Shown: one piece after another, positions 1,869 to 51,379 of the stretch
Layout: every line of letters starts with the position of its first letter
How positions within the stretch are numbered: position 1 is the stretch's first letter
Assembly (NCBI GenBank): GCA_963815195.1
Contig: CAWFGE010000020.1
Coordinates: 288,001 to 352,000, forward strand
Direction: 5' to 3'
DNA length: 64,000 bases
Origin: an uncultured Planctomycetaceae bacterium
GTDB taxonomy: Bacteria; Planctomycetota; Planctomycetia; Planctomycetales; Planctomycetaceae
Notes under the pieces: generated by a model
What the model saw: only the letters and a program-made list of their open reading frames with translations
Told to the model about the DNA's origin: nothing
The model's database searches: none
Program-made: the position numbers and the translations under genes

Positions 1869-5226
<3,358 letters not shown>

Positions 5227-33898: not shown

Positions 33899-35176
33899 AT
33901 GCCCTCCAATAACGACTTCAATCCCGGGAAACGCGGCTCAGGCAAAAAGAACGCCAACTGTTCCTTTTGCCGCAAAAGCTACCGAGAGGTCGGCCCGCTG
34001 GTCGAAGGACCAGACGACGTTTACATCTGCGGCGAATGCATCGAACTCTGCCAGTCCATCCTGGACCAGGAACGCAGACGCCGCGGACCGGCCAAACAAC
34101 TCTTCACCCAAGTCCCCACTCCGCGGGAAATCGTCACCCATCTCAACGACTACGTCATCGGCCAGGAGCACACCAAGAAAGTGCTCGCGGTCGCCGTCCA
34201 CAACCACTACAAACGCTTGATGCTCCGCGAAGATTCCAGCAGCGACGTGGAGATCGAAAAGTCCAACATCCTGTTTATCGGACCCACCGGCTGCGGGAAA
34301 ACCCTGCTGGCCCGCACATTGGCCCGGTATCTTCAGGTCCCGTTTGCCATCGGCGACGCCACGACGCTCACCGAAGCCGGCTACGTCGGCGAGGATGTGG
34401 AAAACCTGCTTTTGAAGCTCCTTCACGCCGCGGACTTCGACATCGAATCCGCCCAGCGCGGGATCTTGTTCATCGATGAAATCGACAAGATCGGCAAGAC
34501 CAGCCAGAACGTCTCGATCACCCGCGACGTGTCCGGCGAAGGCGTGCAGCAGGCCCTTCTGAAAATGCTCGAAGGCACCGTCGCCAACGTCCCGCCCCAA
34601 GGCGGCCGCAAGCATCCCGAGCAGCAATACATCCAGATCGACACGACCAACATCCTGTTCATCTGCGGCGGCACGTTTGTGGGCCTCGAAGACATTATCG
34701 CCAAACGGCTGGGCAAGAAGACGATCGGCTTCGGGCCGTCGGTCGGCGATTCGATGGCCGCCCGCGACCGCGAATTGCTTTCCCAAGCCGCGGTCGACGA
34801 TGTCCTCGAGTTCGGGTTGATTCCCGAACTCGTCGGCCGGCTGCCGGTGATCAGCGCCCTCACGCAGCTTTCCGTGGAGGATCTCGTTCGCATCCTGACG
34901 GAACCGAAGAACTCCCTCGTTCGGCAATATCAGAAATTCTTCGAGATGGAAGGGGCCGAACTGGACTTCACCGAAGGGGCCCTCCGGGAAATCGCCGAAA
35001 TCGCCAAACGCAAAGAAACCGGTGCCCGCGGCCTCCGCAGCGTGGTCGAAGAGACCATGTTCGAATTGATGTACGAACTCCCCGAGCAGGAAGCCGGCCG
35101 GAAATATGTGCTCACCCGCGAAATGATTCGCGGCGAGGAATCCATCTTCCCCAAGGGCGACTCCGCCGCCGCGTAG
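33899..35176 (+). CDS. clpX: ATP-dependent Clp protease ATP-binding subunit ClpX
   Basis: CSFC...CGEC zinc finger, [27 protein letters not shown] loop, GARGLR. Confidence 0.98.
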
Positions 35177-35203
35177 TGCCTTCCTCGTTCGATTCCCTAT
35201 AAT

Positions 35204-35254
35204 AACCAGGACACGAAGTCGCCAAAGGCTTCGTGTCCTGGTTTTTGTTTTTTT
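35204..35254 (+). terminator. Rho-independent terminator after clpX
   Basis: AACCAGGACACGAAG / CTTCGTGTCCTGGTT stem followed by a long T-tract. Confidence 0.75.
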
Positions 35255-35271
35255 CTCCATCGGGAAGCAGG

Positions 35272-38200
35272 ATGAGTCTGAAGAATTCGCCGAGCGAATT
35301 GTTGTCGGAATCCGTGCCGGAAGAGGACGCCCTGGCGCTCTTGCGGTCGGTGAATTTTGAGCGGCCGGAAGAGGCGCTCGGGCGGCTGCGGGGAATGCCT
35401 CAAGATGCCGCCGGCTTGAAGGCGCTCGGGGAATCCCTGCCCATGCTGCTGCATGCGCTGTCCGGCGCGGCCACGCCCGACGGCTCGCTGGTCAACTTCG
35501 AGCGGTTCGTGCAATGCGTCGAGGACCGCAACGGCCTGTTCCGATATCTGGCGGCCTATCCGCGGGCGGTCGAGATCTTGATCAAGCTGTTCGTGGGCAG
35601 CCAGTTTTTGACGGAAATCCTCCTGCGGAATCCGGAATATCTCGCCAAGCTCACCAACCACAAACGGCTCGCGGAATTCAAAAGCCGGGATCAGTTTTAC
35701 AGCGAAGCCCAAGCCGCCGCCGCGGAGTTCGCGGACATGCCCGACAAGCTGGACGCCCTCCGCCGCTGCCAGCATTGGGAACTCCTCCGCATCGGAGCCT
35801 GCGACGCGTTTGGGCTGTTGGATTTGAAGTCGGTCACCGTGCAGTTGTCGCTGCTCACCGACAGCATCGTGCAGGCGTGCCTGGCCTTGATGGCCGGCGA
35901 CCTCGAACTTTCGCTCGACGGATTTGTCGTGCTGGCGTTCGGGAAGCTGGGCGGGGAAGAACTCAATTACAGCTCCGACATCGATCTGGTGTTTCTCGCC
36001 GGCAGCGACGCCACCCGCTATTGGCCCTTAGGCCAGAAGCTGATCAAAGCCCTCACCGAAGCGACCGGCGAAGGGTTTTTGTACCGCGTGGACATGAGGC
36101 TTAGGCCGTGGGGCAAATCGGGGGCCCTCGTGAATACCGTCGATTCCCATTTGCAGTACCTGCAAAAGCACGGCCGGCATTGGGAAATGCAAGCCCTCCT
36201 CAAAGCCCGGCCGATCGCGGGGAACCTCGCCGTGGGCCGGGAGTTTCTGCTGCGCGTGCGGCCGTTGATGTTCGGCACGCCGATCGAGGAACTCCGCCAG
36301 AGTGTTCGCGGCATGAAGGACCGCATCGAAGCCGAGCTCAAAAAACAAGGCCGGAAATGGGGCGAGGTCAAAGCCGGCACCGGTTCGATTCGGGACGTGG
36401 AATTCACCACGCAGTTTCTCCAGCTCGCGCACGGCGGAAAGCATCCCGAAGTCCTCAGCTTCAACACCTTGGACGGCCTCGTGCGGCTTGCGGACTTTGG
36501 ATTCATCCAGGCCGATGAATACCGCCAACTGACCAGCGGCTATGTCTTTTTGCGGACGGTCGAGCATGCGTTGCAGCTCATGCACCACAAACAGACGCAT
36601 TCGCTCCCGGAAAGCCAGCGCGAATTGGCCTACCTGGCCCGCAGGCTGGATTATCCCAACGCGAAAGAGTTCTTGCTGCATTACGAACGCCACTGCACCG
36701 CGATCCGCCGGGTTTACGAACGCTACATCGGCGGTGTGGACCGCCCGCCCGAAAGCGAACTCCGGGCCCCGTCCGATCAACTGCTGAGCCACTTGGAGCA
36801 CATGGAGCCTTCGTATGTCGAGACCTTCTCAGAGAACGAAATCGCCCAGCATGCGAAAATGCTGGGTCGGCTTTCCCCGGACAACCTCATCGAAATCCAA
36901 GCCGAGGCGCTGAGCGACAAACTCTGGAAAGTCACGCTCGCGGGCTACGACTTGCCCGGCGACTTGTCCATGATCTGCGGCCTGTTTTTTGTGTATGGGT
37001 TTAATATCGTCGGCGGGAACGTCTTCACCGAAGAATCCTTCGTGGGCTCCGCCCACGCCCGGCGCCGGGCCGCGGGGGAATCAAACCTCAAAGGCGGTTT
37101 GTGAACGTGTTCTCGGTTCGGCCGCCGCTCGATCTCGTGTTGGACAAGGTCTGGCAGCGGTACCACGGCGACCTGGTGGAATTGCTCCACTTGATCGCCC
37201 AAGGCGAGCAGCGCAAAGCCCAGGGCAAGCTGGCCAAACGCATGGCCGTCGGACTGCGGTCGATCCCCAGTCCGCCGCCCGTGCTGTTTCCCGTCGATAT
37301 CGAAATCGACAACGACAGCTCCGAGAATTACACCGTGATGCACATCCGCGGCACGGACACCATCGGCTTTCTGTATGAGTTATCCAACGCCCTCAACCTC
37401 GCGGAAATCGACATCGCCCGCGTCATCATCAGTCTCGGTCGGGGACAGCGTGTTCGATACGCTGTACGTCACCGATCAGAACAAGCTCAAGATCACCGAT
37501 GAGAGCCGGCTCAAAGAACTCCGGGCGGCGGTCGTGCTCATCAAACACTTCACCCATTTGCTGCCCGGCTCTCCCAACCCCGAGACGGCACTACTCCAGT
37601 TTCGCGAGCTTTTGGAAGAGCTGTTCAAGCGCGAAAACTGGTACGAAGAGTTGTCTTCGCTCAACCGCTTCGACGTGCTCGACGCCCTGGCCCGTTTGCT
37701 CGGCGTGAGCACGTTTTTGTGGGAGGATTTTTTGCGGCTGCAGCACGAGAATCTGTTTCCCGTGGTCACCGACACCGAAGCCTTGGCCCACCGCAAACCC
37801 AAAGCCGACCTGGAACGGGAACTCGGCGCGCTTTTGGAAAAGGCCGGGGATTTCGACGCCCGCACCGCCGAGCTCAACGCCTTCAAGGACCGCGAAATGT
37901 TCCGCACCGACATGCGGCACATCATGGGCTACATCGGCGGGTTCGGGGAGTTCTCGGAAGAACTGGCGGACGTCGCTGACGCCGTCGTCGCCGGAGCCAC
38001 GCAGATTTGCAGCGTCGAATTGCAGAAACGCTTCGGTGTGCCGCGGTTGGAGAGCGGCGGCATCGCCCCCTTGTCCATTTGCGCCTTGGGCAAATGCGGC
38101 GGGCGGGAATTGGGATACGCTTCGGACATCGAATTGATGTTCCTTTACGAAGACGCCGGCTGGACCGACGGGGCAGAGTCCATCACCGTGGCGGAGTATT

Positions 38201-38925
38201 ATCAGCGGCTGGTGGAGCTGTTTCGGCAGACCATCAAAGCCCGGCAGGAGGGGATTTTTCAGGTGGACTTAAGGCTCAGACCCTACGGGCGGGCCGGGAG
38301 CCTGGCCGTCTCGCTCGATGCGTTCCAGCAATACTTCGGACCCGACGGAGCCGCCTGGCCTTACGAACGCCAGGCCCTCGTCAAGCTTCGCCCCGTCGCG
38401 GGCGATCGCAACTTCGGCGAACGGATCACCGCGATCCGCGATCAACTCATTTACACCGGCGAACCGTTCGACGTGGCCGCGATGCGCGGCATGCGGGAAA
38501 AGCAAGTCCTGCAACTCGTCAAAGCCGAGACGATCAACGCCAAGCTCAGCCCCGGCGGACTCGTGGACTGCGAATACCTCGTGCAAGGCCTGCAAATTAC
38601 GCACGGCCACCGCCATCCCGGCTTGAGAACCACGAATACTCTCAAAGCCCTCTCCGCGCTCGCGGACTTGGGAATCATTTCCGCCGTCGATTACGCCGAG
38701 CTTCGCGAAGCCTACATTTTTCTGAGGCGGCTGATCGACGGCCTCCGCATGGTCCGCGGGCACGCCAAAGACCTCACCGTCCCCCCGCCCGACAGCGAGG
38801 AGTTCGAATTCCTGGCCCGGAGGCTCGGCTACGGCAACGACGCCGCCCGCCTCAAACGCAACCTCGACCGCTCCACCGAATGCGTCCGCGAACTCAGCCT
38901 CCTCCTGGAACCCGCCGCCCCATAA
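35272..38925 (+). CDS. glnE: Glutamine synthetase adenylyltransferase GlnE-like, with central ACT-like domains (frameshifts near 37090 and 37435)
   Basis: Two nucleotidyltransferase motifs: GKLGGEELNYSSDIDL with VDMRLRPWG, and GKCGGRELGYASDIEL with VDLRLRPYG. Confidence 0.88.
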
Positions 38926-39103
38926 CAGCCGGAAACAGGAATCATAACCCACCCCGCATCTGTTCCCGGGTCGCGGAACGCAGCGGCCGTTCAAAGGGTG
39001 GGCAATACTCTTTACAAGTCGCAACGTTTCGATATATTGTAATAATGTCATCGATCGTCGAGACCCCAATTCGCCATCATCATCGAGCCACTGAGGATCA
39101 ACC

Positions 39104-39661
39104 ATGAAGCAGAATTATCGCCTGGGAGTTTTTGTCGCCTGTTTGGTTGCCGTTGTGATGGCCGCGGCCGCAAAGCCGAAATCCGACGACTCGGAATCGC
39201 CCCGGATCGAAGGGCACGGCCGGGTGACGCCGTTTCCCGATGCCCCGGAGCAACCCCGCGACGGCTCGAAGTTTGTCGTCGATCTCACCGCGGGCGGACC
39301 CCCCAAAGAACTCAGCAAAGGTCTGGACAAGGTCGCCCGGTTTGTGAACATCTACAGCCAGGCGGGAAAAAAGCCGGCCCGCGCCCGAATCAGCGTGGTG
39401 CTCCACGGCGATGCCACGAACTTGGCTTTGAACGATGCCGCTTACGCCGCCGCATTTCAAACCGAGGCCAATCCGAATTTGCCCTTGCTGCGGGAACTCC
39501 AGAAAGCCGGCGTCGAGTTTGTGGTGTGCGGCCAGGCGCTCACGCTCAAGGGTTATCAGCCCAAGCAAGCGGCTGAGGAAGTCCAAGTGGCCGTGTCCGG
39601 CTTGACGGCTCTCGTCAATCGCCAGGAGGACGGCTACGCCTATGTCCCGCTGACGAAGTAG
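39104..39661 (+). CDS. Exported DsrE family protein
   Basis: Signal peptide; VVLHGDA, NPNLPLLRELQKAGVEFVVCGQAL, QEDGYAY. Confidence 0.85.
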   Translation: MKQNYRLGVFVACLVAVVMAAAAKPKSDDSESPRIEGHGRVTPFPDAPEQPRDGSKFVVDLTAGGPPKELSKGLDKVARFVNIYSQAGKKPARARISVVLHGDATNLALNDAAYAAAFQTEANPNLPLLRELQKAGVEFVVCGQALTLKGYQPKQAAEEVQVAVSGLTALVNRQEDGYAYVPLTK

Positions 39662-39789
39662 CCTCGACCATCGGGACCCGGAGGCGACGGCATCGGCGCT
39701 CACATCACGGGGGGCAGTTTGTCGATTCAGCGGTTTCTGGATTCGACGCCATTCGCGACAAACTGACCCGCAAATTCGGCTTCAATGCA

Positions 39790-40688
39790 CTATTCGATGA
39801 TTTTGTTGATCGAGTATTCCACGATGCCCCGCGCGCCCGCGGCTTTGAGTTTGGGGATAATCGTGCGGACGAAGGACTCCGCCACGATCGCCGTGACATC
39901 CACCCAATCCGGATCGGACAGCGACGACACCGTAGGCGATTGAAGCGCGGGCAGTTGACCCAAAACTTCCTGCAGATTGTCCCGGCGGACGTTCATCATC
40001 AGCCCGACTTTGCCCTCCGCGGCGAGGCAGGATTCCAGCATGAGCGCGATGTTGTCCAGCTTTTCGCGAATCCAGGGGTCTTCGTAGGATTTTCTGTTGG
40101 CGATGAAGCGGGTCGTGCTTTGGATGACCTCGGCCACGATCCGCAGGTTGTTCGCCCGCAGCGAATTTCCGGTCTCGGTGACTTCCACGATCGCATCGGC
40201 CAATCGCGGCGGCTTGACTTCGGTCGCGCCCAGGAAAACTCCACCTTCGCGGTGACGCCGTGCTTTTCGAGGAAGCGCTTCGTAAGGCCCACGGCTTCCG
40301 TGGCGATCCGTTTTCCTTCCAGATCCTTCACGGTCTTCACTGGGGAATCTTCCGGCACGCAGAGCACCCACCGCACCGGGCGGCGGCTGACTTTCGAGAA
40401 CACCAGCTCGCAAATCTCATAAACGTCGGCTTCGGTTTCCAAGACCCAATCGTGCCCCGTGATCCCGGCATCCAAAATGCCTTCCTCGACGTACCGGGCC
40501 ATCTCCTGGGCGCGGATCAACAGGCATTCGATGTCCTCATCGTCGATGTCGGGATAATACGAGCGCGAGGAGAATTTGATCTTGTAACCCGCCCGGCGAA
40601 AAAGCTCCGCGGTCGCGTCCTGCAAGCTTCCCGCAGGAATCCCGAGCTTCAGCCGACGCTTAGTTTCTGTGGTTTCGGTGTCCGACAT
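39790..40688 (-). CDS. hisG: ATP phosphoribosyltransferase, long form (frameshift near 40230)
   Basis: [44 protein letters not shown]-terminal regulatory domain (PALQSPTVS). Confidence 0.95.
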
Positions 40689-40703
40689 TGTGCTTTCTTA
40701 ACC

Positions 40704-40770
40704 AGTAGGGTGGGCACCGCCCACCAATGCAAAGCCAATTTGAAATCTGGTGGGCGGTGCCCACCCTACT
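40704..40770. repeat. GTAG-type REP doublet (REPIN-like)
   Basis: Perfect 23-bp inverted repeat AGTAGGGTGGGCACCGCCCACCA (40704-40726 / 40748-40770). Confidence 0.85.
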
Positions 40771-40843
40771 TTTACTTCGTTTCTGTGGTTTCGGTGTCCG
40801 ACATGGTTTCTCTTAGAAATTGCAGGTCCCAGATTCTTCGTTA

Positions 40844-41164
40844 TTAATCTTCGTCGGTATAGGAACCTTCGATGGAGTGCTTCTCGTCCGCGAGATTTTC
40901 AAGAAACTCCTGTCGGATCCTGGCGATAATCCAGCGCTCCGACCAATCATGGCTCTGATGTAAACCGTTGGCGACGTGACGAGCCAAATCAGCGAGCAGA
41001 TGCCCCCAGACCTCGGGTTCCTTTCTTCCATCGTCTTCCGAATCTTGCCGCAGGCCGCCCAACAATATTGAGACATGGAGTTCCCCATGGGCGAGCCAAA
41101 CGCGGATCATCTCCGTGGCATCGTCATCTCCCGCAATCTCCGGTGGCTTATCGAGTTCGTGCAT
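40844..41164 (-). CDS. DUF5076-like small protein
   Basis: EMIRVWLA and WGHLLADLARHVAN motifs. Confidence 0.7.
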   Translation of the reverse strand: MHELDKPPEIAGDDDATEMIRVWLAHGELHVSILLGGLRQDSEDDGRKEPEVWGHLLADLARHVANGLHQSHDWSERWIIARIRQEFLENLADEKHSIEGSYTDED

Positions 41165-41172
41165 GCTGATCG

Positions 41173-41574
41173 TTACTTCTTGTTATAAACCGCCTTGGGA
41201 TCGAACACGCGTTCGCCGATGACGCTGATTTCCTTCGTCGCGGGGTCGATCTGGCGGAAGAAGCAGCTTTTGTAGCCTTCGTGGCAGGCGGCACCGCCGA
41301 CTTGCTCGACTTGGATCAACACCGTATCGCGGTCGCAGTCGAAATAAATGGCTTTGACGTTTTGGACGTTGCCGCTCTCTTCGCCTTTCCGCCAGAGCTT
41401 GTTTCGGCTGCGGCTATAGTAGCAGACTCTGCCCGTCTTGAGCGTTTCGTTCCAGGCTTCGCGGTTCATATACGCCAGCATCAATACGTCCCCGTTGCCG
41501 GCATCCTGGGCGATCACGGGAATCAGCGGCGACTTCTCAAAATCCGGCTCGTTTGCTTGCTCAGTCACAATCAA
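41173..41574 (-). CDS. hisI: Phosphoribosyl-AMP cyclohydrolase
   Basis: [29 protein letters not shown] and [10 protein letters not shown] motifs. Confidence 0.97.
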
Positions 41575-41809
41575 AATCCTCGGTTGTTTTATCGCTGTTT
41601 CAATGCAATTCTTCGCGTCTTGGTGGTAAAGACGTTTTCGGGCATTCTCACTTCCCCCATTCGGCCCGTTCGCCTAGTATCTGCGCTATTGACGGAACTT
41701 GCAAGCACCCCTCGCCGGGGCTTTTTCCTGTTTTTTGAGATGCAGCCCGGCGAGCGCGGCGAATTTCAATCGAAAACTGAGAACCCGAACCGAAAGGAGT
41801 TTTTCTTCG

Positions 41810-42421
41810 ATGGCCGAACAAAAAGCAACCAACGTCACCTGGCACGAGCACCATGTTTCCAAGGCGGAACGTGAAAAACTCAACGGGCACCCGGGCAGCG
41901 TGCTGTGGTTCACGGGGTTGTCCGGCTGCGGCAAAAGCACCGTCGCCAACACCGTCGACCACATTTTGTACTCCCAAGGCAAACGCAGCTTCGTCCTCGA
42001 CGGCGACAATGTCCGCATGGGCCTGAACAAAAATCTGGGCTTCTCGCCGGAAGACCGGACCGAAAATATCCGCCGCATCGGCGAAGTCGCCAAGCTGTTC
42101 GCGAGTGCGGGGATCATCACGAGCACGGCGTTCATTTCCCCCTACAAAGCCGACCGCGACCTGGTCCGCGAACTTCTTCAGCCGGGCGAGTTCATTGAAA
42201 TCTACGTGAAGGCGTCGCTGGAAACCTGCGAAGCCCGCGATCCCAAGGGCCTTTATAAAAAAGCCCGCGCCGGGGAAATCAAAGGTTTTACGGGCATCGA
42301 CGCCCCCTACGAAGCCCCCGAAAGCCCGGAATTGGTCCTGGACTCCGACAGCAAAGGCATCGACGAACTGGCCCAGGAAGTCGTGGCGTACCTGGAAAGC
42401 CACAAACGGCTTTCGCTGTGA
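41810..42421 (+). CDS. cysC: Adenylyl-sulfate kinase
   Basis: [54 protein letters not shown] upstream. Confidence 0.97.
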
Positions 42422-42436
42422 GTCGTTTCGGCCAAC

Positions 42437-43783
42437 TCACCATTCGATCCGCTCGAACAATCGCATCAACTTGGCTCCGCGACTGGGGTTGATCGCGGCT
42501 TGATAGGCGATCAATCCTTGCAAATGGGCTTGAAAGTGCGCGCGGCCGGAGCGGTTTTGTCTCTTGGGGCCGTGCCGAATGCAGTTGAACAGAATCGCCC
42601 GCAGGCGGTCGTAATCATCCCGGCGGAGGTTGGGCCGCTGATTGAGCACGAGGCCACAGGCTTCCTGCCGAGCGGCTTGGCTCATCACGCGGGTCTTTCG
42701 GTGGCGGATTTCAAACCCTTCATTGAGCACGATGGCGCAAACCGAAATGCGAAAGCGTCCCAGGCTCCGCCGAAAATCGCGGCCGCCGGAAAACACCAGA
42801 TCGTCGGCATATCGCGTGTAGTTCGCGCCGGCTTTGCGGGCCAATCCGCTGAGCCGGCAGTCCAAACGGTAAGCCGCGAGGTTGGCGAGCGTGGGCGAGG
42901 TCGGTGCTCCCTGAGGCAAGTGTGGATTGCCGTATTGTTCCGCCAACCGGCGGTACGGATCGAGATCCAGTGAGTCGTTCAGTTCCTCAACGATTTCGGA
43001 AGGGACCGAGTTCGTGCAAAGTCCGGTCAACAACTCGGCGACCGCTTCGGGATAACCGGTCCAGCGAAACAGCGAGCGAACGCGGGCCCTGTGAATCGAA
43101 GGAAAGAAATGCCGCAGGTCCAAATGCAGCACAACCTGCTGCCCGGCGTGCGGCTCGACATAAGTCAAAACCGAACGGCCGCTGCGAAACGCGTGCGCTG
43201 CTTCGTGGGCGGGGATGCGGCCGACGATTTCTTTGAGGATGCGGCGCTGGATGTTTTTTAAGAGCGGCTTGGGTTCTTCGATCAAGCGGTATCCGGGGCC
43301 GCGTTTGGGCAGCCAGCGGTAACGGTAATGCCTGAGTTTTTCATTTGGCCGAAAGCGCTCGCGCCCGAAGCAATCCGCCAGCCAATCCAGGCGGGAAGGA
43401 CTGACCGACAACCAATCCGCCAAATCGCCGGGCGTGACCAACTCCGGCAGGTTCCAACCGGCGGGAAGACCTCGGCCGGGAATCATCTGCGGCCGAGGAA
43501 CGGCCAAGGTATCGATTTCGAGCCCATCGTTGAGTTCGAGTTCGCAAATTTTCTCCCACAAGATTGGATCGTGATTCAGGAAATCCACAAGCAGTCGCTG
43601 GGGGGGCGGCAAGGCATTGGCATCAAAGCGAGCCAGGATTCTTCGCGCGAAGGGTGCGATCCACCGGGCCCTGGGATCGGGCTGCAATGCTTTCTTGAGC
43701 CGATCGATCAACGCGTCGATCGTCCACGGACCGGACAAAATCACGATTGCCAGCCGGCGACTGAAAACCTTGCGATGCGTCAT
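42437..43783 (-). CDS. Retron-type reverse transcriptase with N-terminal extension (448 aa)
   Basis: RLIEEPK, HEAAHAF, LDLRHFFPSI, LPQGAPTSPTLAN and YTRYADDLVFSG motifs; region-Y-like QEACGLVLN. Confidence 0.92.
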   Translation of the reverse strand: MTHRKVFSRRLAIVILSGPWTIDALIDRLKKALQPDPRARWIAPFARRILARFDANALPPPQRLLVDFLNHDPILWEKICELELNDGLEIDTLAVPRPQMIPGRGLPAGWNLPELVTPGDLADWLSVSPSRLDWLADCFGRERFRPNEKLRHYRYRWLPKRGPGYRLIEEPKPLLKNIQRRILKEIVGRIPAHEAAHAFRSGRSVLTYVEPHAGQQVVLHLDLRHFFPSIHRARVRSLFRWTGYPEAVAELLTGLCTNSVPSEIVEELNDSLDLDPYRRLAEQYGNPHLPQGAPTSPTLANLAAYRLDCRLSGLARKAGANYTRYADDLVFSGGRDFRRSLGRFRISVCAIVLNEGFEIRHRKTRVMSQAARQEACGLVLNQRPNLRRDDYDRLRAILFNCIRHGPKRQNRSGRAHFQAHLQGLIAYQAAINPSRGAKLMRLFERIEW

Positions 43784-43800
43784 TGGGGAATTGGCGAAAA

Positions 43801-43974
43801 AAAACGGGCGGCACGTCCCACCTGGTCTGGTCACGCGTGAATTATGCTCCACAACGTGGAGGGGCATTCACGCCACGGAACGGTTCGGTTGGAAACAATC
43901 CCCGGGGTTGCCCCGGAGAGGAAAACTTCACCCGCAGGCAAAATCTTCCCACTTGAGACGTGCCGCCCGGTTTT
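43801..43974 (-). ncRNA. Putative retron msr-msd ncRNA
   Basis: 13-bp perfect IR CGGGCGGCACGTC (43805-43817 / 43957-43969); two msr-like hairpins (43920-43949, 43899-43919); msd-like hairpin (43835-43873); lies directly 5' of the RT. Confidence 0.8.
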
Positions 43975-43975
43975 G

Positions 43976-44004
43976 AATCTACGTCCACGATCGCAGCTTG
44001 TCAA
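43976..44004 (-). promoter_or_regulatory. Putative sigma70 promoter of the retron
   Basis: Minus strand TTGACA (44004-43999), N17, TAGATT (43981-43976). This puts the start site at the first IR arm. Confidence 0.75.
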
Positions 44005-44286
44005 TTTGCGCGATCGAAAGGTCGATTTGAGTCCTCACGGCCGGCGGGCACGCAAAAAGGCTGACTCTGTGGATTGTGCCACCAAGAAGGATTCTTTGGG
44101 CCAAAGGCCAAATCGCTTTCAGAAAACTCCGCCCCGGCCATGATGGACGCCGAGAATAAGTTATCGTACATTCCATTGCGGGTGAATCGGCGCTCGGCAT
44201 CCGTCCGAAAAGAAAGAAGAGCGGACCGCCGCCGGGCGATTTCCACCCCTCGAAGTCAAACGACACAACTCCCTGAACAGGCCAAT

Positions 44287-46473
44287 ATGCCTCCGGTTCA
44301 TCTTGCGATACTTTGGCATCAGCATCAGCCCTATTATCCCGACGATGTGAGCGGGGAAACCTTGATGCCCTGGGTTCGCCTGCACGGGACCAAAGACTAC
44401 TTCGGCATGGCCCGGCACCTTTTGGAAGTCCCGGAGTTCCGCTGCACGATCAACCTCGTGCCCAGCCTGCTCGTGCAGATTTTGAGATACACCGAACAGG
44501 GCGGCAGCGATCGGCATTTGGATTTGTCCCGCTTGCCCGCCGACAGCTTCACCGCTTCCGACCGGCGGGAACTGTTGTCGGCCGGTTTTATGGCCAACCC
44601 GGAAAGCATGATCCGACCGTATCCGCGGTATCAGGAACTTCTGCTCAAGCGCGGCGTCGATCCCGTGGAAAAAGCCGCCGCCCGCTTTTCCGAAGCGGAC
44701 CTCCGCGATCTTCAGTGCTGGAGCAATCTCACCTGGATTCATGAACTCGCTTTTGAAGACGATCCCGAACTCCGCGAGTTCCGCAAGAAAGGCAAAGGCT
44801 ACAGCGAAAGCGAAAAAGCCTGGCTTCTCGATCGGCAGATGGCGATTCTCCGGCAGGTGATTCCGCTCCACAAGAAGCTCGCGGAATCGGGGCAGGTGGA
44901 ACTCACGACCACGCCGTTTTATCATCCTATCCTGCCGCTCTTGTGGGACAAGACCTCGGCCCGGCAGGCCATGCCCGATTGCCCGCTGCCCCGGTACGTG
45001 GACCGCTACCCGGAAGATGCCCGCCGGCATCTGGGGCGGGGCGCGGCGTTTCACGAAAAGATTTTTGGGAAGCCGCCGCGGGGCCTGTGGCCTTCGGAAG
45101 GTTCAGTCTCACAGGACATCTTGGAGGCCATCACCGAAGTCGGCATCGAATGGATCGCCACCGATGAGGAAATCCTCGCCCACTCCACGGGCGGCCGGGT
45201 CGCGCGGGACGGGCAAGGCCACGCAACGCATCCCGAACTCTTGTATCGGCCCTGGAATGTCGAAGCCGGCACGAAGCCGTTGCAGATCGTGTTTCGCGAT
45301 CACGGTCTGAGCGATTTGATCGGCTTTCATTACCAGCGGAGCGAACCCCATCATGCGGTGCAGGACCTCATCGGCCGCGTGCTCGCCATCGGGCGGGCGG
45401 TCAGCGCCGAAGGCAGCCACCGGCCCGCCTTGGTGCCGATCATTCTGGACGGCGAGAACTGCTGGGAATACTACCCGGACGGCGGCGTGGATTTTCTCCG
45501 TCGGCTTTACCGCGACGCGGTCCGCAACGAACGCCTCCGCCCCGTGACGATCAGCGAGAGCCTCAAGGAGTTTCCCGCGACCGACACGATCGGCCGATTG
45601 TTCGCGGGCAGCTGGATTTCGCACAACTTCGCGATCTGGATCGGCCATCACGAAGACAACACCGCCTGGGATCTCCTGCACATGACCCGCGAGTTTTTGA
45701 AGGAAACCGCCGCCGCGGGCACGGCCGAGCCCGAGGCTTTGGAGAAAGCCCAGAACGAACTCGACATTGCCGAAGGCAGCGATTGGTTCTGGTGGTTCGG
45801 AGACGATCATTCGTCGGCCCAGGATGCGCTGTTCGATGAACTGTTTCGCCGGCATTTGAGCAACGTCTATCGGCTCTTGGGCAGCAATCCGCCCAACGCC
45901 CTTCGCCGGCCGATCACGCGGGCCGATCATCGGTTGCTCCACACGCAGCCAACGGGTTTGTTGCGGGTGAAGGTCACCGGGCGGGCCACGTATTTTGAAT
46001 GGATCAGCGCGGGGAAATACACGAGCGGCAGCGAGCGCGGCACGATGACGCTCGTCACCGAAGGATTGATCAAAGGGCTGCACTTCGGCTTCGACCCGGA
46101 GCGGCTGTTGATCCGGGCCGACACCAACGGCCGCGCGAAAGACGCGTTTCGCTCGGTGGACGAAGTGCGGGTGCGGTTCCAAGAGCCGGCCCAAACGGAG
46201 ATTCGCATCACCGGAGCGAACACCCGCCAGCCGGCCGCCGCACTGTTTCGCCAGCAGAAAGAAGTCAACAAAGCCAAGGTGGAAGCCGCGATCGACACGC
46301 TAGTCGAGATCGGCGTGTCGCGGGCCGATTTGAACGTCGACGTGGGGGACCGGGTTTCGTTCTTCGTGGATTGCCTGAGCAAAAACCGCAGCCTCGACCG
46401 GGCTCCCCAGGAAGGTTTGATCGAACTCACGGTCCCCTCGCCGGATTTTGAGTTGTTCATGTGGCAGGTGTGA
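44287..46473 (+). CDS. Glycoside hydrolase family 57 (amylopullulanase-like)
   Basis: [36 protein letters not shown] and AEGSDWFWW motifs. Confidence 0.92.
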
Positions 46474-46655
46474 GCGGAGGAATATATTAGCCGGCACGCG
46501 CTCGCGTCCGGTCCAGCGAACGTCAGAGAAAATGGCAGAAACCGGCGGCGAGCTAGCGCCCTGCGGGGAATTTTTGGGAAAGCCACCAAAACTCAGCCGG
46601 TGAGCGGAGAGCCAAGAGCCGGAAGCAAACAGAAGCAAGAGACGAAGAATAGGTT

Positions 46656-46867
46656 TTTACCGCGAAGCGGTTATATGCCAAAGCCCAGGGTCGCGCAGCG
46701 CACCCTGGGTTGGTGATGTTTCATCAGTTCAATACGCCGAAGGCGTTGCACAATCGGTTTGTATAACGCCTTCGGCATAAGGCAATGTATTGTGCATCCA
46801 TACCCAGGGTGGCGCGGCTGCGCCGCTGACCCTGGGCTTTGAAATGTAACGCCTTCGGCGTAAAGAC
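46656..46867. repeat. ~210-bp multi-hairpin palindromic element (MITE/REP-like), copy 1
   Basis: Nested ACGCCGAAGGCGT and CCCAGGG...CCCTGGG hairpins; inverted homolog at 55529-55739. Confidence 0.85.
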
Positions 46868-46915
46868 AGAAATACGCTTGACCGGGACGTACATTAAGAC
46901 ATGGCAAATTCACGC

Positions 46916-47917
46916 ATGCCGGATTTACGCAAAGATCCCATTGTGGGCCGATGGGTGATTATCGCGCCCGACCGGGCCAAACGCCCGGAGGACTTCAGCC
47001 AGCAGTTCCGCGAGACCGCCGGCCGCTACGACCCGTTCGCCGAAGGCCACGAAGAGGCGACGCCCCCCGAAATCCTGGCGTACCGCACCCACGGCTCGGA
47101 ACCCAACGGACCCGGCTGGCGGGTCCGCGTCGTGCCCAACAAATTCCCCGCCCTCCAGGTCGAAGGCGAACTGCACAAGCGCGGCGACGGGATTTATGAC
47201 ATGATGAACGGCATCGGGGCGCACGAAGTCATCATCGAATGCCCCCAGACCGAAACCAGTATGGCCCGGTTGTCCGTCGAGAATATCCGCGAAGTGTTTT
47301 GGGCCTACCGCGATCGGCTGGTGGACTTGAAACGCGACCACCGCCTGTTGCACGGGCTGATCTTCAAGAACAAAGGAGCCGCGGCGGGGGCGTCGCTCGC
47401 GCACAGCCATTCCCAGTTGATCGTCACCTCGGTGGTGCCGATCTCGATTCGCGAAGAGATGACGGGCGCGCTCGACTTCTACAACTACCGCGGCCGGTGC
47501 ATTTACGACGACATGATCCACCAGGAACTGCGGACGGCGAAGCGGGTGGTTTTGGAGACGGAGCAGTTCGTCGCCCTGTGCCCGTTCGCCAGCCGGGTGC
47601 CGTTCGAGATGTGGATCCTGCCCAAGCAGCATTCGAGCCATTACGAGAACATCGGCAAACAAAGCCTGGAGGAATTGGGCGGCGTGATGAAAACCGTGCT
47701 CACCAAGTTGGAACTGGCCCTTGATGATCCGCCGTACAACTATATGATTCACACGGCCCCGTTTGATGTCGCCGAGTTGCCGCACTACCATTGGCATATC
47801 GAAATCCTGCCCCGCCTGACCCGCGTGGCGGGGTTCGAATGGGGCAGCGGGTTTTACATCAACCCCGTCACCCCGGAAGACGCCGCCGACTTCCTCCGCG
47901 GCATGGAAGCGGAGTAA
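46916..47917 (+). CDS. galT: Galactose-1-phosphate uridylyltransferase family (GalT-like)
   Basis: [41 protein letters not shown] (HxHxQ), AGFEWGSG. Confidence 0.9.
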
Positions 47918-47925
47918 ACGAGGCA

Positions 47926-48042
47926 ACCACGAAGGCACGAAGGACAAGGGCCGAAACCCCGAAGGAATTGAAAGATAAAATTCTGCGTCAATTGCGCGCA
48001 TTTTCATGGGGCTTTCTCAGTCTATGTTCGTGCCTTCGTGGT
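47926..48042. repeat. 16-bp perfect inverted repeat in the intergenic region
   Basis: ACCACGAAGGCACGAA (47926-47941) / TTCGTGCCTTCGTGGT (48027-48042). Confidence 0.7.
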
Positions 48043-48259
48043 AAAATCTCTTCGGGGAATTCGTGTTCCCGGGACGGAACTTTAGGCGGTTTTTGAAGAT
48101 TGCGGGAAATTTGCGGATCAAATCATTCAGGCGGAAGGCGGTTGGGTTTGGATTTTGACAATTTCTGCCCGCGTTGGGAAAACTCCTGAGCGCTGCTTTC
48201 GCCATGCACCGAAAAAACACTGAGCCTTTATTTCATTCCGGAAGGAAAGGACGCTTTCC

Positions 48260-50452
48260 ATGAGCCAGATCCGTTTGGTTCTCGCCATTCACAATCACCA
48301 GCCCATCGGGAATTTCGAAAGCGTTTGCGAGCAATCCTTCCGCGACAGTTACGGGCCGTTTCTGGACGTGCTCGAAGACTATCCGGAGCTGCCGATTTCG
48401 CTGCACACGTCGGGGAGCCTGTTGGAATGGCTCGCGGTGGCGCATCCGGAATATATCGACCGGGTGCGGATGTTCGTCGAGCGCGGGCAGGTGGAGATTC
48501 TGGGCGGGCCGTTTTACGAGCCGATCTTGTCTTCGATTCCCCGCCGAGACCGCGTGGGGCAGATCGTGGCCTATTCCCGCTATTTGAAGCAAATGTTCGG
48601 AGCGGACGTTCGCGGGATGTGGGTGCCGGAACGCGTTTGGGAGCAGGCGTTTGCCTCCGACATCGCCCGCGCGGGCATCGAATACACAATTCTGGACGAC
48701 TACCACTTCCGCGGTGCGGGTCTCTCGTCCGATCAGCTTTGGAGCTATTACCTGACCGAAGATGAAGGCCGGCTTTTAAAGGTCTTCCCCGGCAGCGAAC
48801 GGCTGCGATATACGATCCCCTTCGAGGACCCGCAGGCGACGATCGACTACCTCCGCGAACTCGCGTACAAACACCCCAACTCGGTGTGCACGTTCGGCGA
48901 TGATGGCGAGAAATTCGGCACGTGGCCCAACACGAAAAAACACGTTTACGAAGATGGCTGGCTGCGGCGGTTTTTTGATGCTCTCCGGGCCAACGGGGAT
49001 TGGCTGAAAGTCGCCACGCTTTCGGAAGCCGTCGATCAAGTCGCTCCCGCGGGCGAGATTTATATTCCCGATTGCAGCTACCGCGAAATGAACGAATGGG
49101 CTTTGCCCACGGGCCGGCAGATCGAACTCAAATCGCTGCAAATCAAGAAGAAAGACGATCCCGATTGGACCGCGATCCGCAGTTTCATCCACGGCGGCTA
49201 CTGGCGGAATTTCCGCGTGAAATATCCGGAAGCCCACGAAATGTACGCCCGGATGCTGGGCATTAGCGAACGGCTGGAGTCGCTGACCAAAAACGGTTCC
49301 ATAACCAATGACGAAGCCGAGCCGCTCAACCAGGCCCGGACGGAACTCTACCGCGCCCAGTGCAATTGTTCGTACTGGCACGGAGCCTTTGGCGGGTTGT
49401 ATTTGCCGCACTTGCGAAACGCCGTGTATCGGCATTTGATCGCCGCCGACACGCTGCTCGAACAAGCGACCGGGCGGAGCGGATCCTGGCTGGAAATCAC
49501 CGCCGACGATTTCGACCGCGATGCCCGCAAGGAAGTCCGGCTGGCGAGCGACCGGTTCGCGGCGTGGCTGGCTCCCGCGCGGGGCGGACATCTCTACGAA
49601 CTCGATGTGCGATCCGCCCGGCACAATCTGCTCGCGACATTAAACCGCCGGCCCGAGCCTTATCATGAAGTCGTCCTCAAAGCCGGCCAGCAAAGGGACA
49701 ACGGCGAGCACCATGGGGATGGCGTCGCGAGCATTCACGACATGGTCCACTTCAAACAGCCCGACCTCGATAAGAAAATCGCCTACGACAACTGGCCGCG
49801 GAAGAGTCTGATCGATCACTTCCTGCAGCCGGGGTTGAGCCTCGAAGAGTTTCTGCAAAACCGCGGCGACGTTGGCGATTTTGTCCACGGAGTCTATGAA
49901 GCCACGCTCCGCCGCTCCGACAACCGGGTGGAAGCGGTGTTGGCCCGGCAAGGGAATGTGGGACCGTATTCGGTCAAGCTTTCCAAAACCGTGGCCTTGG
50001 GTGCCGAGAACCCCGGCCGCTTGGAAGTCGTGTATCGCCTTGAAAACCTGCCGCTGGATGTGCCGATCCACTTTGCGGTCGAGTTCAACTTCGCCGGCCT
50101 GCCCGCGGGCGCTCCGGATCGATATTATTACGATGCGAACCGCCAGCAACTCGGCCAGTTGGAGACGATTCAGTCTCTGCCCGAATCGCAAACGATCGGT
50201 TTGATGGATGAATGGCTCGGCATCGATGCGTCGCTCGATCTTTCACAGCCGGCGGAGATCTGGACGTTTCCGATCCAGACCATCAGCCAATCCGAAGGCG
50301 GGTTCGAGTTGGTGCATCAAAGCTCGGCGGTGGTTCCACATTGGCAGTTCACGGCCGACCCGTCCGGCCGCTGGGGCGTGCGGATTTCGCTGAATGTCGA
50401 CACCTCCAAAGCCCAGATTCGCCAACTCCACGAAGCCGCCGTGATGAGCTGA
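48260..50452 (+). CDS. GH57 alpha-amylase / 4-alpha-glucanotransferase
   Basis: HNHQPIGNF, GGPFYEPIL, WVPERVWE, GDDGEKFG, QCNCSYWHGAFGGLYLPHLR. Confidence 0.92.
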   Translation: MSQIRLVLAIHNHQPIGNFESVCEQSFRDSYGPFLDVLEDYPELPISLHTSGSLLEWLAVAHPEYIDRVRMFVERGQVEILGGPFYEPILSSIPRRDRVGQIVAYSRYLKQMFGADVRGMWVPERVWEQAFASDIARAGIEYTILDDYHFRGAGLSSDQLWSYYLTEDEGRLLKVFPGSERLRYTIPFEDPQATIDYLRELAYKHPNSVCTFGDDGEKFGTWPNTKKHVYEDGWLRRFFDALRANGDWLKVATLSEAVDQVAPAGEIYIPDCSYREMNEWALPTGRQIELKSLQIKKKDDPDWTAIRSFIHGGYWRNFRVKYPEAHEMYARMLGISERLESLTKNGSITNDEAEPLNQARTELYRAQCNCSYWHGAFGGLYLPHLRNAVYRHLIAADTLLEQATGRSGSWLEITADDFDRDARKEVRLASDRFAAWLAPARGGHLYELDVRSARHNLLATLNRRPEPYHEVVLKAGQQRDNGEHHGDGVASIHDMVHFKQPDLDKKIAYDNWPRKSLIDHFLQPGLSLEEFLQNRGDVGDFVHGVYEATLRRSDNRVEAVLARQGNVGPYSVKLSKTVALGAENPGRLEVVYRLENLPLDVPIHFAVEFNFAGLPAGAPDRYYYDANRQQLGQLETIQSLPESQTIGLMDEWLGIDASLDLSQPAEIWTFPIQTISQSEGGFELVHQSSAVVPHWQFTADPSGRWGVRISLNVDTSKAQIRQLHEAAVMS

Positions 50453-50537
50453 CGCGAGTCTTCCGCATCGGCGGCTTCCCAGCCCTCGCACGCTTTTGGA
50501 TCGTCAGACCGATCGAATCGGCGAACTCTCGCGAGGG

Positions 50538-51092
50538 TTACGGGCTGAAGGCTTTGTGGAGCCGTTCGAGGATGTCTTCTTCGAGCACGAAGTCCCGGCC
50601 TTGGGAAATCCAGCCCGGAGGCGTGATCTGGCCCGCAATCAGGTTCAGATCGCGCTCGAGCGGCGTGATGTCCTGGAACGTCGCGCCGCCGGGGGTGCCG
50701 CCCGACAGATCTTCCAGTTCCTTGTAGGCTTCGACGTTGATGAAGTAGCCGCCCTCCGCCGGCGTGATGTTCACAACGACCCGGCGGCGGATGGATTGCA
50801 GCGTGCTTTCCAGCCGTTGGTACGCCCCCACCGATTCCTTATGCCAAGGCTCCAATAGCCCCGAACCGGTTTTGTAGTCCGTTTCGATCACCCCGTCCAA
50901 ACGGTCTTCACGGCGGATGAAGAACGGATATTTGTGGAGCACATCGACCGTCCGCTCCCACACCGCGTTTTGGTTGTTCGACGCCACGAACAACGGTTGC
51001 CCGATCGGTCCCGGGGTGGCCTTGCGCAAATTGTGGCAGCCCCCGCACGCGAGCAGGCAGAATAAGATCAAGAGCAATCGGGAATGTCGCAT
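50538..51092 (-). CDS. Hypothetical lipoprotein
   Basis: Signal peptide with lipobox-like ACGGC; conserved-looking W, LEPW and GRD motifs. Confidence 0.7.
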   Translation of the reverse strand: MRHSRLLLILFCLLACGGCHNLRKATPGPIGQPLFVASNNQNAVWERTVDVLHKYPFFIRREDRLDGVIETDYKTGSGLLEPWHKESVGAYQRLESTLQSIRRRVVVNITPAEGGYFINVEAYKELEDLSGGTPGGATFQDITPLERDLNLIAGQITPPGWISQGRDFVLEEDILERLHKAFSP

Positions 51093-51379
51093 ACGTTCCC
51101 AACATTCGGCGGCGAGAGATCGGTGCAGACGGGCGTCGATCGGAAGAAGGGCAATTGAATTTCGAGGGAAAGTCGCGTAGTGTGCCAGCAACCGCCAAAG
51201 CCTGCAAGACCAGTTTTTTTCGGACCGAAAACCGGTCGGGCCGGGTAAGTCGTTTCACGAAAAATCGTGAGAGCCGCGGGTTCGTTGACACTTCCCGGCG
51301 GGGCGTTATCGTGGAATGAAGTCTCGCCCGCGTGCCGGCCCGAATTCCGGCTTTCGATTTCCCAGGAGAGCAAAAACCG

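Follow-up and report, generated by a model that had tools for sequence, protein, structure and literature searches.

A stand-alone retron cassette, probably of reverse transcriptase clade 11, in an uncultured planctomycete

Our analysis of 64,000 nucleotides of DNA from an uncultured Planctomycetaceae bacterium (NCBI GenBank assembly GCA_963815195.1, contig CAWFGE010000020.1, positions 288,001 to 352,000 of the forward strand; this whole stretch is referred to here as the window, and its first letter is position 1) points to a self-contained retron at positions 42437-44007. Reading the minus strand of 42300-44200, a promoter, a structured non-coding RNA (ncRNA) and a gene for a reverse transcriptase (RT) follow one another in that order. 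It is likely, in our view, that the locus is a stand-alone retron and that its RT falls in clade 11 of Mestre et al. 2020 (PMC7736814), known as the 'outgroup' lineage. This reading is based on the following: in both sequence and predicted fold the RT is of the retron type, the RNA upstream of it has a retron-like structure that is conserved in distant relatives, the promoter of this RNA keeps its position, and the whole is a compact module with no linked effector gene.

Among the RT profiles of PADLOC, the best match of the protein is the model RT_other (492.9 bits, E-value 3.2e-148, residues 3-448), followed by RT_outgroup, which is labelled 'retron' (467 bits, 1.5e-140), and then by RT_XIII (316.7 bits, 7e-95), whose alignment only begins at residue 111. 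Every one of the top 25 PADLOC matches listed (of 57 families) is a retron RT model. The two other retron RTs of the same genome serve as an internal control, as they score 509 and 486 bits with RT_XIII, compared with 366 and 316 bits with RT_other. A sequence search of the PDB returned retron RTs exclusively down to an E-value of 6e-13, with a group II RT appearing for the first time at 7e-4. The AlphaFold (AF2) model, built from 131 homologues, has a mean predicted local distance difference test (pLDDT) score of 94.4, and in Foldseek its top 17 matches are retron RTs, the best being those of retrons Ec86, Eco2 and Eco7, with group II, diversity-generating retroelement (DGR) and defence-associated RT (DRT) enzymes far behind. 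The catalytic residues Y325, D327 and D328 are invariant in the 131 sequences. An earlier reading of this DNA, made from the sequence only, had held that a clustering of the RT with group II intron, DGR or other non-retron enzymes would speak against a retron; no such clustering is found in the profiles, the PDB sequences or the Foldseek comparison. Since homologues align from residue 1, the ATG at 43783 is preferred as the start codon over an in-frame ATG at 43867, which lies inside the msd. The first ~110 residues form a domain specific to the family, which is kept over its full length in homologues with an identity of ~30%; it has pLDDT values of 83-96 in the full-length model, and when modelled alone it gives five helices at a pLDDT of 83. 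Structural comparison of this domain with 48,161 chains using VIA-align retrieved scattered helical proteins within the noise (best Z 5.8, the BabyBass soluble domain), and the best score in an Atlas feature search (0.79) was below lead level.

The RNA encoded between promoter and RT gene folds, in prediction, into the architecture expected of a retron msr-msd region. Its 5' arm a1, CGGGCGGCACGUC (43969-43957), is perfectly complementary to 43817-43805, and U-G, C-G and A-U pairs extend this closing stem to 16 bp, after which come an A.G mismatch and then G43952, exactly as described in the sequence-only reading, where a 13-nt perfect complement, the same three additional pairs and an unpaired AG led to G43952. 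On the minus strand, the segment 43795-43975 has a minimum free energy (MFE) of -92.9 kcal/mol (z -6.47), a value that none of 200 shuffles equals, and the fold proposed in that reading is recovered, with its two short hairpins (hairpins 1 and 2) and the long CTCCAC/GTGGAG hairpin at 43873-43835. The plus strand of the same region folds worse (MFE -76.6, z -3.61) and does not form hairpin 1, which supports the idea, also put forward earlier, that the G-U pairs of these hairpins work only on the RT-sense strand. The RT start codon lies 21 nt after a2, where some 20 nt had been noted. Immediately 3' of a2 there is a run of eight U (U8), and a scan for terminator-like sites lists sites at 43823-43802. 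In a congener of the host, the position of the U8 tract reads UUUUCUUUU, and the tract is not general across the family; speculatively, it may attenuate transcription, or read-through from the ncRNA into the RT gene (ret), at this locus.

The same RNA is found upstream of related RT genes. RT homologues number in the thousands; when each species was represented by one genome, at least 599 stretches matched, 596 of those listed encode an RT relative, and 80 loci were kept, the loci sampled for the RNA and for the RT tree coming from nine phyla. At most loci, a search for inverted repeats finds arms of 8-18 nt, 120-160 nt apart and ending just ahead of the RT gene, and the sequences of these closing-stem arms vary among lineages. 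Single-sequence MFE folds of 39 upstream regions show the same four-part architecture in all of them, with a hairpin at the place of hairpin 1 in every case (39/39). When the 39 sequences are aligned, with a consensus of 44 pairs, 85.8% of the cells are paired, as against 40-47% when the partners are slid by 1-3 columns; changes on both sides of the pair (compensatory) are seen in 38 of the 44 pairs, and in 500 shuffles the observed value was never attained for any of the five measures used. Both sides have changed in all 18 aligned pairs of the closing stem, and compensatory changes affect 12 of 13 pairs of the msd hairpin. Hairpin 2, by comparison the most conserved element, holds eight of the ten invariant columns of the alignment and has 95.4% of its cells paired, two of its pairs showing C-G/U-A and C-G/G-C exchanges, and we infer that it is the likely recognition site of the RT. 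The covariance model (R1), of the kind that the sequence-only reading had suggested building from the upstream regions of RT homologues, gives a full-length match upstream of the RT, with conserved a1/a2 pairing, in 78 of the 80 loci (window, 123 bits); one of the two exceptions lies at a contig end and the other has no upstream DNA. Forty of the 78 matched loci are outside the training set, and the only R1 match in the window's own genome is this locus. The position of G43952, already singled out as the candidate branching residue, is a G in 75 of 79 RNAs, 2'-5' priming itself being a prediction, and that of G43822, on the other side of the stem, is a G in 79 of 79. The consensus retron RNA structure of Mestre et al. 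2020 (PMC7736814) likewise draws attention to a pair of opposing G residues, as its Fig. 2 legend states.

Two loci in this collection deserve separate mention. In one Solirubrobacterales metagenome-assembled genome (L047:4753-4954) the ncRNA and its -10 box are inverted relative to the RT and otherwise intact, while its sister locus (L051:4780-4982) has the usual RNA-RT order; the two share the cassette only. The inversion may have arisen by recombination between a1 and a2, or be an assembly artefact; a genuine inversion would mean that the RNA and ret are able to form separate transcription units. Another locus (L008) carries a perfect 40-nt inverted repeat (4559-4598 and 4733-4772, with 134 nt between the arms) about 40 nt upstream of the local retron ncRNA, and this repeat has no sequence relation to a1/a2.

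The promoter noticed earlier on the minus strand, TTGACA-N17-TAGATT, is present at 44004-43976. It is the one promoter-like site in 43600-44200 (10 of 12 matches), where dinucleotide shuffles lead to an expectation of 0.1. The congener has the same -35 hexamer, yet five of the 17 spacer bases have changed. Over the 78 loci, TTGAC occurs at the equivalent offset in 16, and a TAnnnT hexamer begins 14 to 5 nt ahead of the RNA-model match in 64, whereas farther out, between -100 and -15, no one offset has such a hexamer in more than three loci. The conserved position of the -10 box in 64 of 78 loci therefore indicates that the RNA has its own positionally conserved promoter, and transcription would start at ~43969 +/- 2, which is the first base (5' end) of a1.

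The 1.57-kb module is a discrete unit of promoter, ncRNA and RT. In the congener (G061) the orthologous RT is 81% identical, lies on another contig and adjoins tatC, and a blastn comparison of window positions 34000-54000 with that contig (G061:C13) gave one match, 42437-44007, of 1595 columns at 80.6% identity. Homology thus runs from the stop codon to three bases past the -35 box, and the flanks are unrelated. Within the block, promoter and ncRNA together are 93% identical, compared with 80.6% for the whole, both hexamers are unchanged and the msd hairpin is 100% identical. At the other side of the junction, the homology around the adenosine 5'-phosphosulfate (APS) kinase gene in two congeners (G061 and G062) stops at 42419-42427. 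Neither target-site duplications nor terminal repeats were seen by eye at the ends of the cassette, where no systematic search for them was made.

The retron is also stand-alone, without a linked effector gene, a point that the sequence-only reading did not raise. The 81 loci contain 2,571 open reading frames (ORFs) of 100 aa or longer, and when all of these were clustered against one another the only recurring groups were the RT and reading frames that overlap it; the next cluster is present in five loci. The nearest neighbours of the RT lie on either strand in equal numbers. Of the 75 genes selected as downstream neighbours, two had coordinates that extended beyond the locus and were set aside; a Pfam scan of the remaining 73 identified diverse housekeeping genes, among them Dus, NAD synthase, KARI, QueA and sulfatases, and no integrases or known effector families; the 73 upstream neighbours were covered by the ORF clustering only. 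In the window there is no room for an effector on either side of the cassette: the RT stop codon is 15 nt from the stop codon of the convergent APS kinase gene, and the retron promoter faces a divergent gene of the GH57 family. In the relatives' loci neither an APS kinase nor a GH57 gene adjoins the RT, an arrangement confined to the genome of the window, and there is no synteny. As to an effector fused to the RT, the sole extra domain of the protein is the N-terminal helical bundle, which has no recognised enzymatic fold. The features of the cassette and of its surroundings are collected in Table 1. On the GH57 side, two genes of this family stand either side of a GalT/HIT-like gene on the plus strand (44074-50452), in what looks like a glycan metabolism cluster, and the opposite flank carries hisG, hisI and the APS kinase gene.

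Table 1. Position of the retron cassette, its parts and two neighbouring genes in the window.
Feature	Position	Strand	Basis or remark
Whole cassette	42437..44007	-	Block of nucleotide homology common to the window and the congener (G061) retron
-35 hexamer TTGACA	43999..44004	-	Sequence; unchanged in the congener
-10 hexamer TAGATT	43976..43981	-	Consensus scan; 17-nt spacer to -35
a1, 5' arm of closing stem	43954..43969	-	16 bp with 43805-43820, 13 of them perfect Watson-Crick
Candidate branching G	43952	-	Within unpaired AG after a1, one base past the A.G mismatch
msr hairpin 1, 14 bp with G-U pairs	43919..43950	-	MFE fold; sequence differs among lineages
msr hairpin 2, UCUCCGGGG-CAA-CCCCGGGGA	43899..43919	-	Most conserved RNA element
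msd hairpin, GCGUGAAU..CUCCAC / GUGGAG..AUUCACGC	43835..43873	-	Fold and repeat search; core of the predicted RT-DNA template
Opposing G, 3' side of closing stem	43822	-	Adjoins the expected cDNA start
a2, 3' arm of closing stem	43805..43820	-	Complement of a1
U8 tract, immediately 3' of a2	43797..43804	-	Sequence
ret, 448-aa RT (stop included)	42437..43783	-	RVT_1 5.4e-19 (Pfam); RT_other 3.2e-148 (PADLOC)
N-terminal family-specific domain, ~residues 1-110	43454..43783	-	Five-helix bundle without recognised fold
Catalytic YADD, residues 325-328	42800..42811	-	Sequence
GH57 family gene	44074-46473	+	Putative glycan metabolism cluster
GH57 family gene with amylase/4-alpha-glucanotransferase C-terminal domains	48260-50452	+	Putative glycan metabolism cluster

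In the mechanism that we propose, the sigma-70-type promoter (44004-43976) would start a transcript at ~43969, the first base of a1. Pairing of a1 with a2 would close the RNA and display the msd hairpin together with both msr hairpins, while G43952 and G43822 would face each other at the stem's inner end. The RT could be translated from the ATG at 43783 either after read-through past the U8 tract or from a separate low-level transcript, and would bind the near-invariant hairpin 2. The 2'-OH of G43952 would then prime synthesis, and copying would proceed from just 5' of a2 (~43822-43823) through the msd towards hairpin 2. The predicted product is a branched multicopy single-stranded DNA (msDNA) of ~60-85 nt that would remain bound to the RT; the sequence-only reading had proposed 70-80 nt of RT-DNA (about 43821-43895), likewise a prediction. 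The presumed priming residue, the presumed extent of the complementary DNA (cDNA) and any biological role all belong to this scheme. For the latter we lean, tentatively, towards a phage-sensing RT-msDNA particle that would act via the helical N-terminal domain of the RT, or via an unlinked partner.

Several observations weigh against a clade-11 retron with such a role. The NCBIfam retron models match below their cut-off (retron_St85_RT, 178 bits versus 235). The region X motif NAxxH, located between RT2 and RT3 and reading NATPH in Ec86, reads YVEPH in the window, with H212 invariant in the 131 homologues and the N and A not kept, and the region Y motif VTG of RT7 reads ACG (family consensus AAG), with G377 invariant. 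According to the account of these motifs in Mestre et al. 2020 (PMC7736814), this H and this G are their most conserved residues. The canonical msr-msd-ret layout claimed by the sequence-only reading thus stands as regards the architecture, the a1/a2 stem and the opposing G residues, seen in 79 loci, and for NAxxH and VTG it stands only at the H and the G. A scan of 43000-44600 with Rfam, with E-values of up to 10, gave chance-level matches only and none on the ncRNA. The equivalence of PADLOC's RT_other and RT_outgroup with clade 11 is suggested by the shared name 'outgroup' and by matching properties. The msDNA, the transcript and its start site are predictions from sequence. As for defence, the loci lack an effector, a defence-island setting and genes of mobile elements, and the RT tree tracks host phyla, which is unusual for defence systems.

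Other views can be taken of what the cassette does. It is possible, although we incline against it, that promoter, ncRNA and RT are a complete two-component system without a protein effector, in which the RT, with its N-terminal helical domain, and the msDNA suffice; they would serve either in defence, with the cDNA as output, or in a cellular task that is conserved. On this view it is understandable that conservation is confined to the module, that hairpin 2 and both G residues are near-invariant over nine phyla, and that the RT tree follows host phyla.

That the retron has been domesticated, with a cellular, non-defence function and vertical descent within phyla, seems unlikely to us. This origin was proposed for such retrons by Mestre et al. 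2020 (PMC7736814), in the part of that paper that deals with them, and would fit the housekeeping neighbours without mobility genes and the strong purifying selection on the ncRNA (93% versus 80.6% identity for the block). It would also fit the RT tree, on which nine phylum labels require 10 changes, with a minimum of 8, a mean of 46.6 when shuffled and none of 200 shuffles as low; because related genomes share labels, the tree shows clustering by phylum and is not proof of vertical descent. Against domestication, the Planctomycetota fall into at least three groups on this tree, and the distribution of the retron is patchy. A retron orthologue is present in two of four genomes of the genus, the two without a match being 90% and 85% complete. 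An RT relative is present, at an E-value of 1e-80, in 44 of 61 genomes from the taxonomic family to which the window belongs, and a full-length orthologue is found in ~14; the remaining relatives match from residue 110 onward only and belong to a sister subfamily with a different N-terminus. The lack of synteny, even between congeners, is unexpected for a core function. The sister subfamily (L060, L064, L068, L069 and L075), which is common in the same taxonomic family, forms a separate branch with 100% support, has RNAs that score lower with R1 (45-75 bits) and may correspond to the second clade-11 RNA family. An in-frame TAA in one orthologue of the taxonomic family (L094, G039:C119:56942-58252) makes it a probable pseudogene.

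DRT2 and DRT9 are defence systems that consist of an RT and an ncRNA, and they provide a precedent for a cassette whose output is the cDNA itself. If RT, N-terminal domain and ncRNA were likewise the whole system, with regulated or runaway cDNA synthesis taking the place of a protein toxin, much as in DRT2 and DRT9, it would be natural that the 81 loci reveal no partner gene, linked or conserved, that the conserved unit is made up of exactly promoter, ncRNA and RT, and that the family-specific N-terminal domain is kept at full length; DRT2 and DRT9 RT-ncRNA complexes do occur among the distant structural matches of our RT (ranks 19, 27 and 32). We think this improbable, however, on comparing the structures and the RNAs, as the template modelling (TM) scores for DRT2 and DRT9 are 0.36-0.42 against 0.83 for retron RTs, and the RNA has the classical retron layout of a1/a2 and opposing G residues, which is not a known DRT layout. 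No feature of repeated or rolling synthesis was seen either, none having been searched for.

It is very improbable that the upstream structure makes no msDNA and is simply a cis-regulatory 5' leader, or an autoregulatory element bound by the RT. Such an element would be compatible with the degenerate NAxxH and VTG motifs and with a U8 tract past the closing stem that could attenuate, and msDNA from the cassette is itself predicted from the DNA. A leader would nevertheless not require two G residues that face each other inside the closing stem, next to a1 and a2, or a long msd-type hairpin, both of which are specific to msDNA priming, and the catalytic YADD is invariant. The RNA of L047, inverted together with its -10 box and yet kept intact, is therefore not simply a leader. 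In the preprint of Khan et al. (10.1101/2024.01.25.577267), as far as its account of a sampling of retrons from each RT clade goes, almost no RT-DNA was produced only in clades 3 and 4. The chance that the RT comes from a non-retron class (group II intron, DGR or Abi/UG) is negligible, and we reject it: a weak match to the group II RT/maturase model TIGR04416 (7e-10, 38 bits versus a cut-off of 300) and weak matches to Drt2 and Drt3a stand against strong sequence and structure matches that are all to retron RTs, and the Rfam scan and ORF clustering revealed no intron RNA domains, template or variable repeats or accessory genes.

Whether the effectors of orphan retrons act in trans, or such retrons have a different function, is a question raised by Mestre et al. 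2020 (PMC7736814). The present locus is a clean minimal example, with sharp ends at 42437 and 44007, and its well-supported RNA structure, predicted primer G and conserved promoter make it well suited as a test case. Being so compact, it could also be of use as an intracellular source of single-stranded DNA.

Among known systems, the closest are the clade-11 cassettes. As set out in the sections of Mestre et al. 2020 (PMC7736814) on RT classification, retron RTs fall into 11 clades, of which clade 11 has stand-alone (msr-msd)-RT cassettes with two or three RNA consensus structures, is 'essentially restricted' to Actinobacteria and comprises retrons that 'may have been domesticated'. A 2026 survey of SPIRE (PMC13712802) includes profiles for clade 11 and the RNA models OutgroupA and OutgroupB, and its tabulated entries for the clade list no accessory domain; they report clade11-A in Pseudomonadota, Actinomycetota and Acidobacteriota, and 86% of the low-confidence clade11-B candidates in Planctomycetota. 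Our family resembles these cassettes in that its best hidden Markov models, RT_other and RT_outgroup, match at full length, in having no associated gene, and in its upstream ncRNA, where a1/a2 encloses the short msr hairpins and the long stem of the msd. It is likewise spread over Actinomycetota, Acidobacteriota, Pseudomonadota and Planctomycetota, with a phylogeny that tracks the host, as far as these sources describe the clade. The clade of Mestre et al. is, as portrayed there, essentially actinobacterial, whereas here there are many planctomycetes, acidobacteria and verrucomicrobia, a difference in which we see nothing decisive.

Type XIII retrons (RT clade 10: Mx162, Mx65, Sa163 and Ne144) provide the next-best RT model, and the host genome has two RTs of this kind, its other retron RTs (G000:C13:1180387-1181349, L082, and G000:C23:234510-235454, L083), which are 41-43% identical to ours over residues 110-445. 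Unlike our cassette, type XIII has linked genes for SWIM/DEDE and HEAT/ARM proteins (Table 1 of Mestre et al. 2020, PMC7736814), and the two host RTs differ in scoring higher with RT_XIII than with RT_other, in having no R1-type RNA and in not sharing the N-terminal 110 residues. Ec107-like 'orphan' retrons, from a branch of RT clade 2, also lack an effector as they are described, but belong to a different RT clade (RT_Ec107-like scores 190.9 bits here) and are mostly from Bacillota and host-associated, according to the entries for this group in the SPIRE survey (PMC13712802). Among the best structural matches is Retron-Eco1 (Ec86; PDB 7v9u/7v9x), whose core superimposes on our model with a TM score of 0.83-0.85 (target) and a root-mean-square deviation of 2.7-2.9 over ~336 columns, at 25-26% identity, with QGAPTSPxLAN, YADD and the G of VTG aligned; both systems have a G adjoining a1/a2 for priming. 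Ec86 is, however, a 320-aa enzyme with a linked NDT-type effector, as given in Table 1 of Mestre et al. 2020 (PMC7736814), whereas our RT has a helical N-terminal domain of ~110 residues, an insert of ~30 residues at 258-288, the variant motifs YVEPH and ACG, and no effector. The locus thus adds a member to the already catalogued clade-11 lineage, and is no new kind of system.

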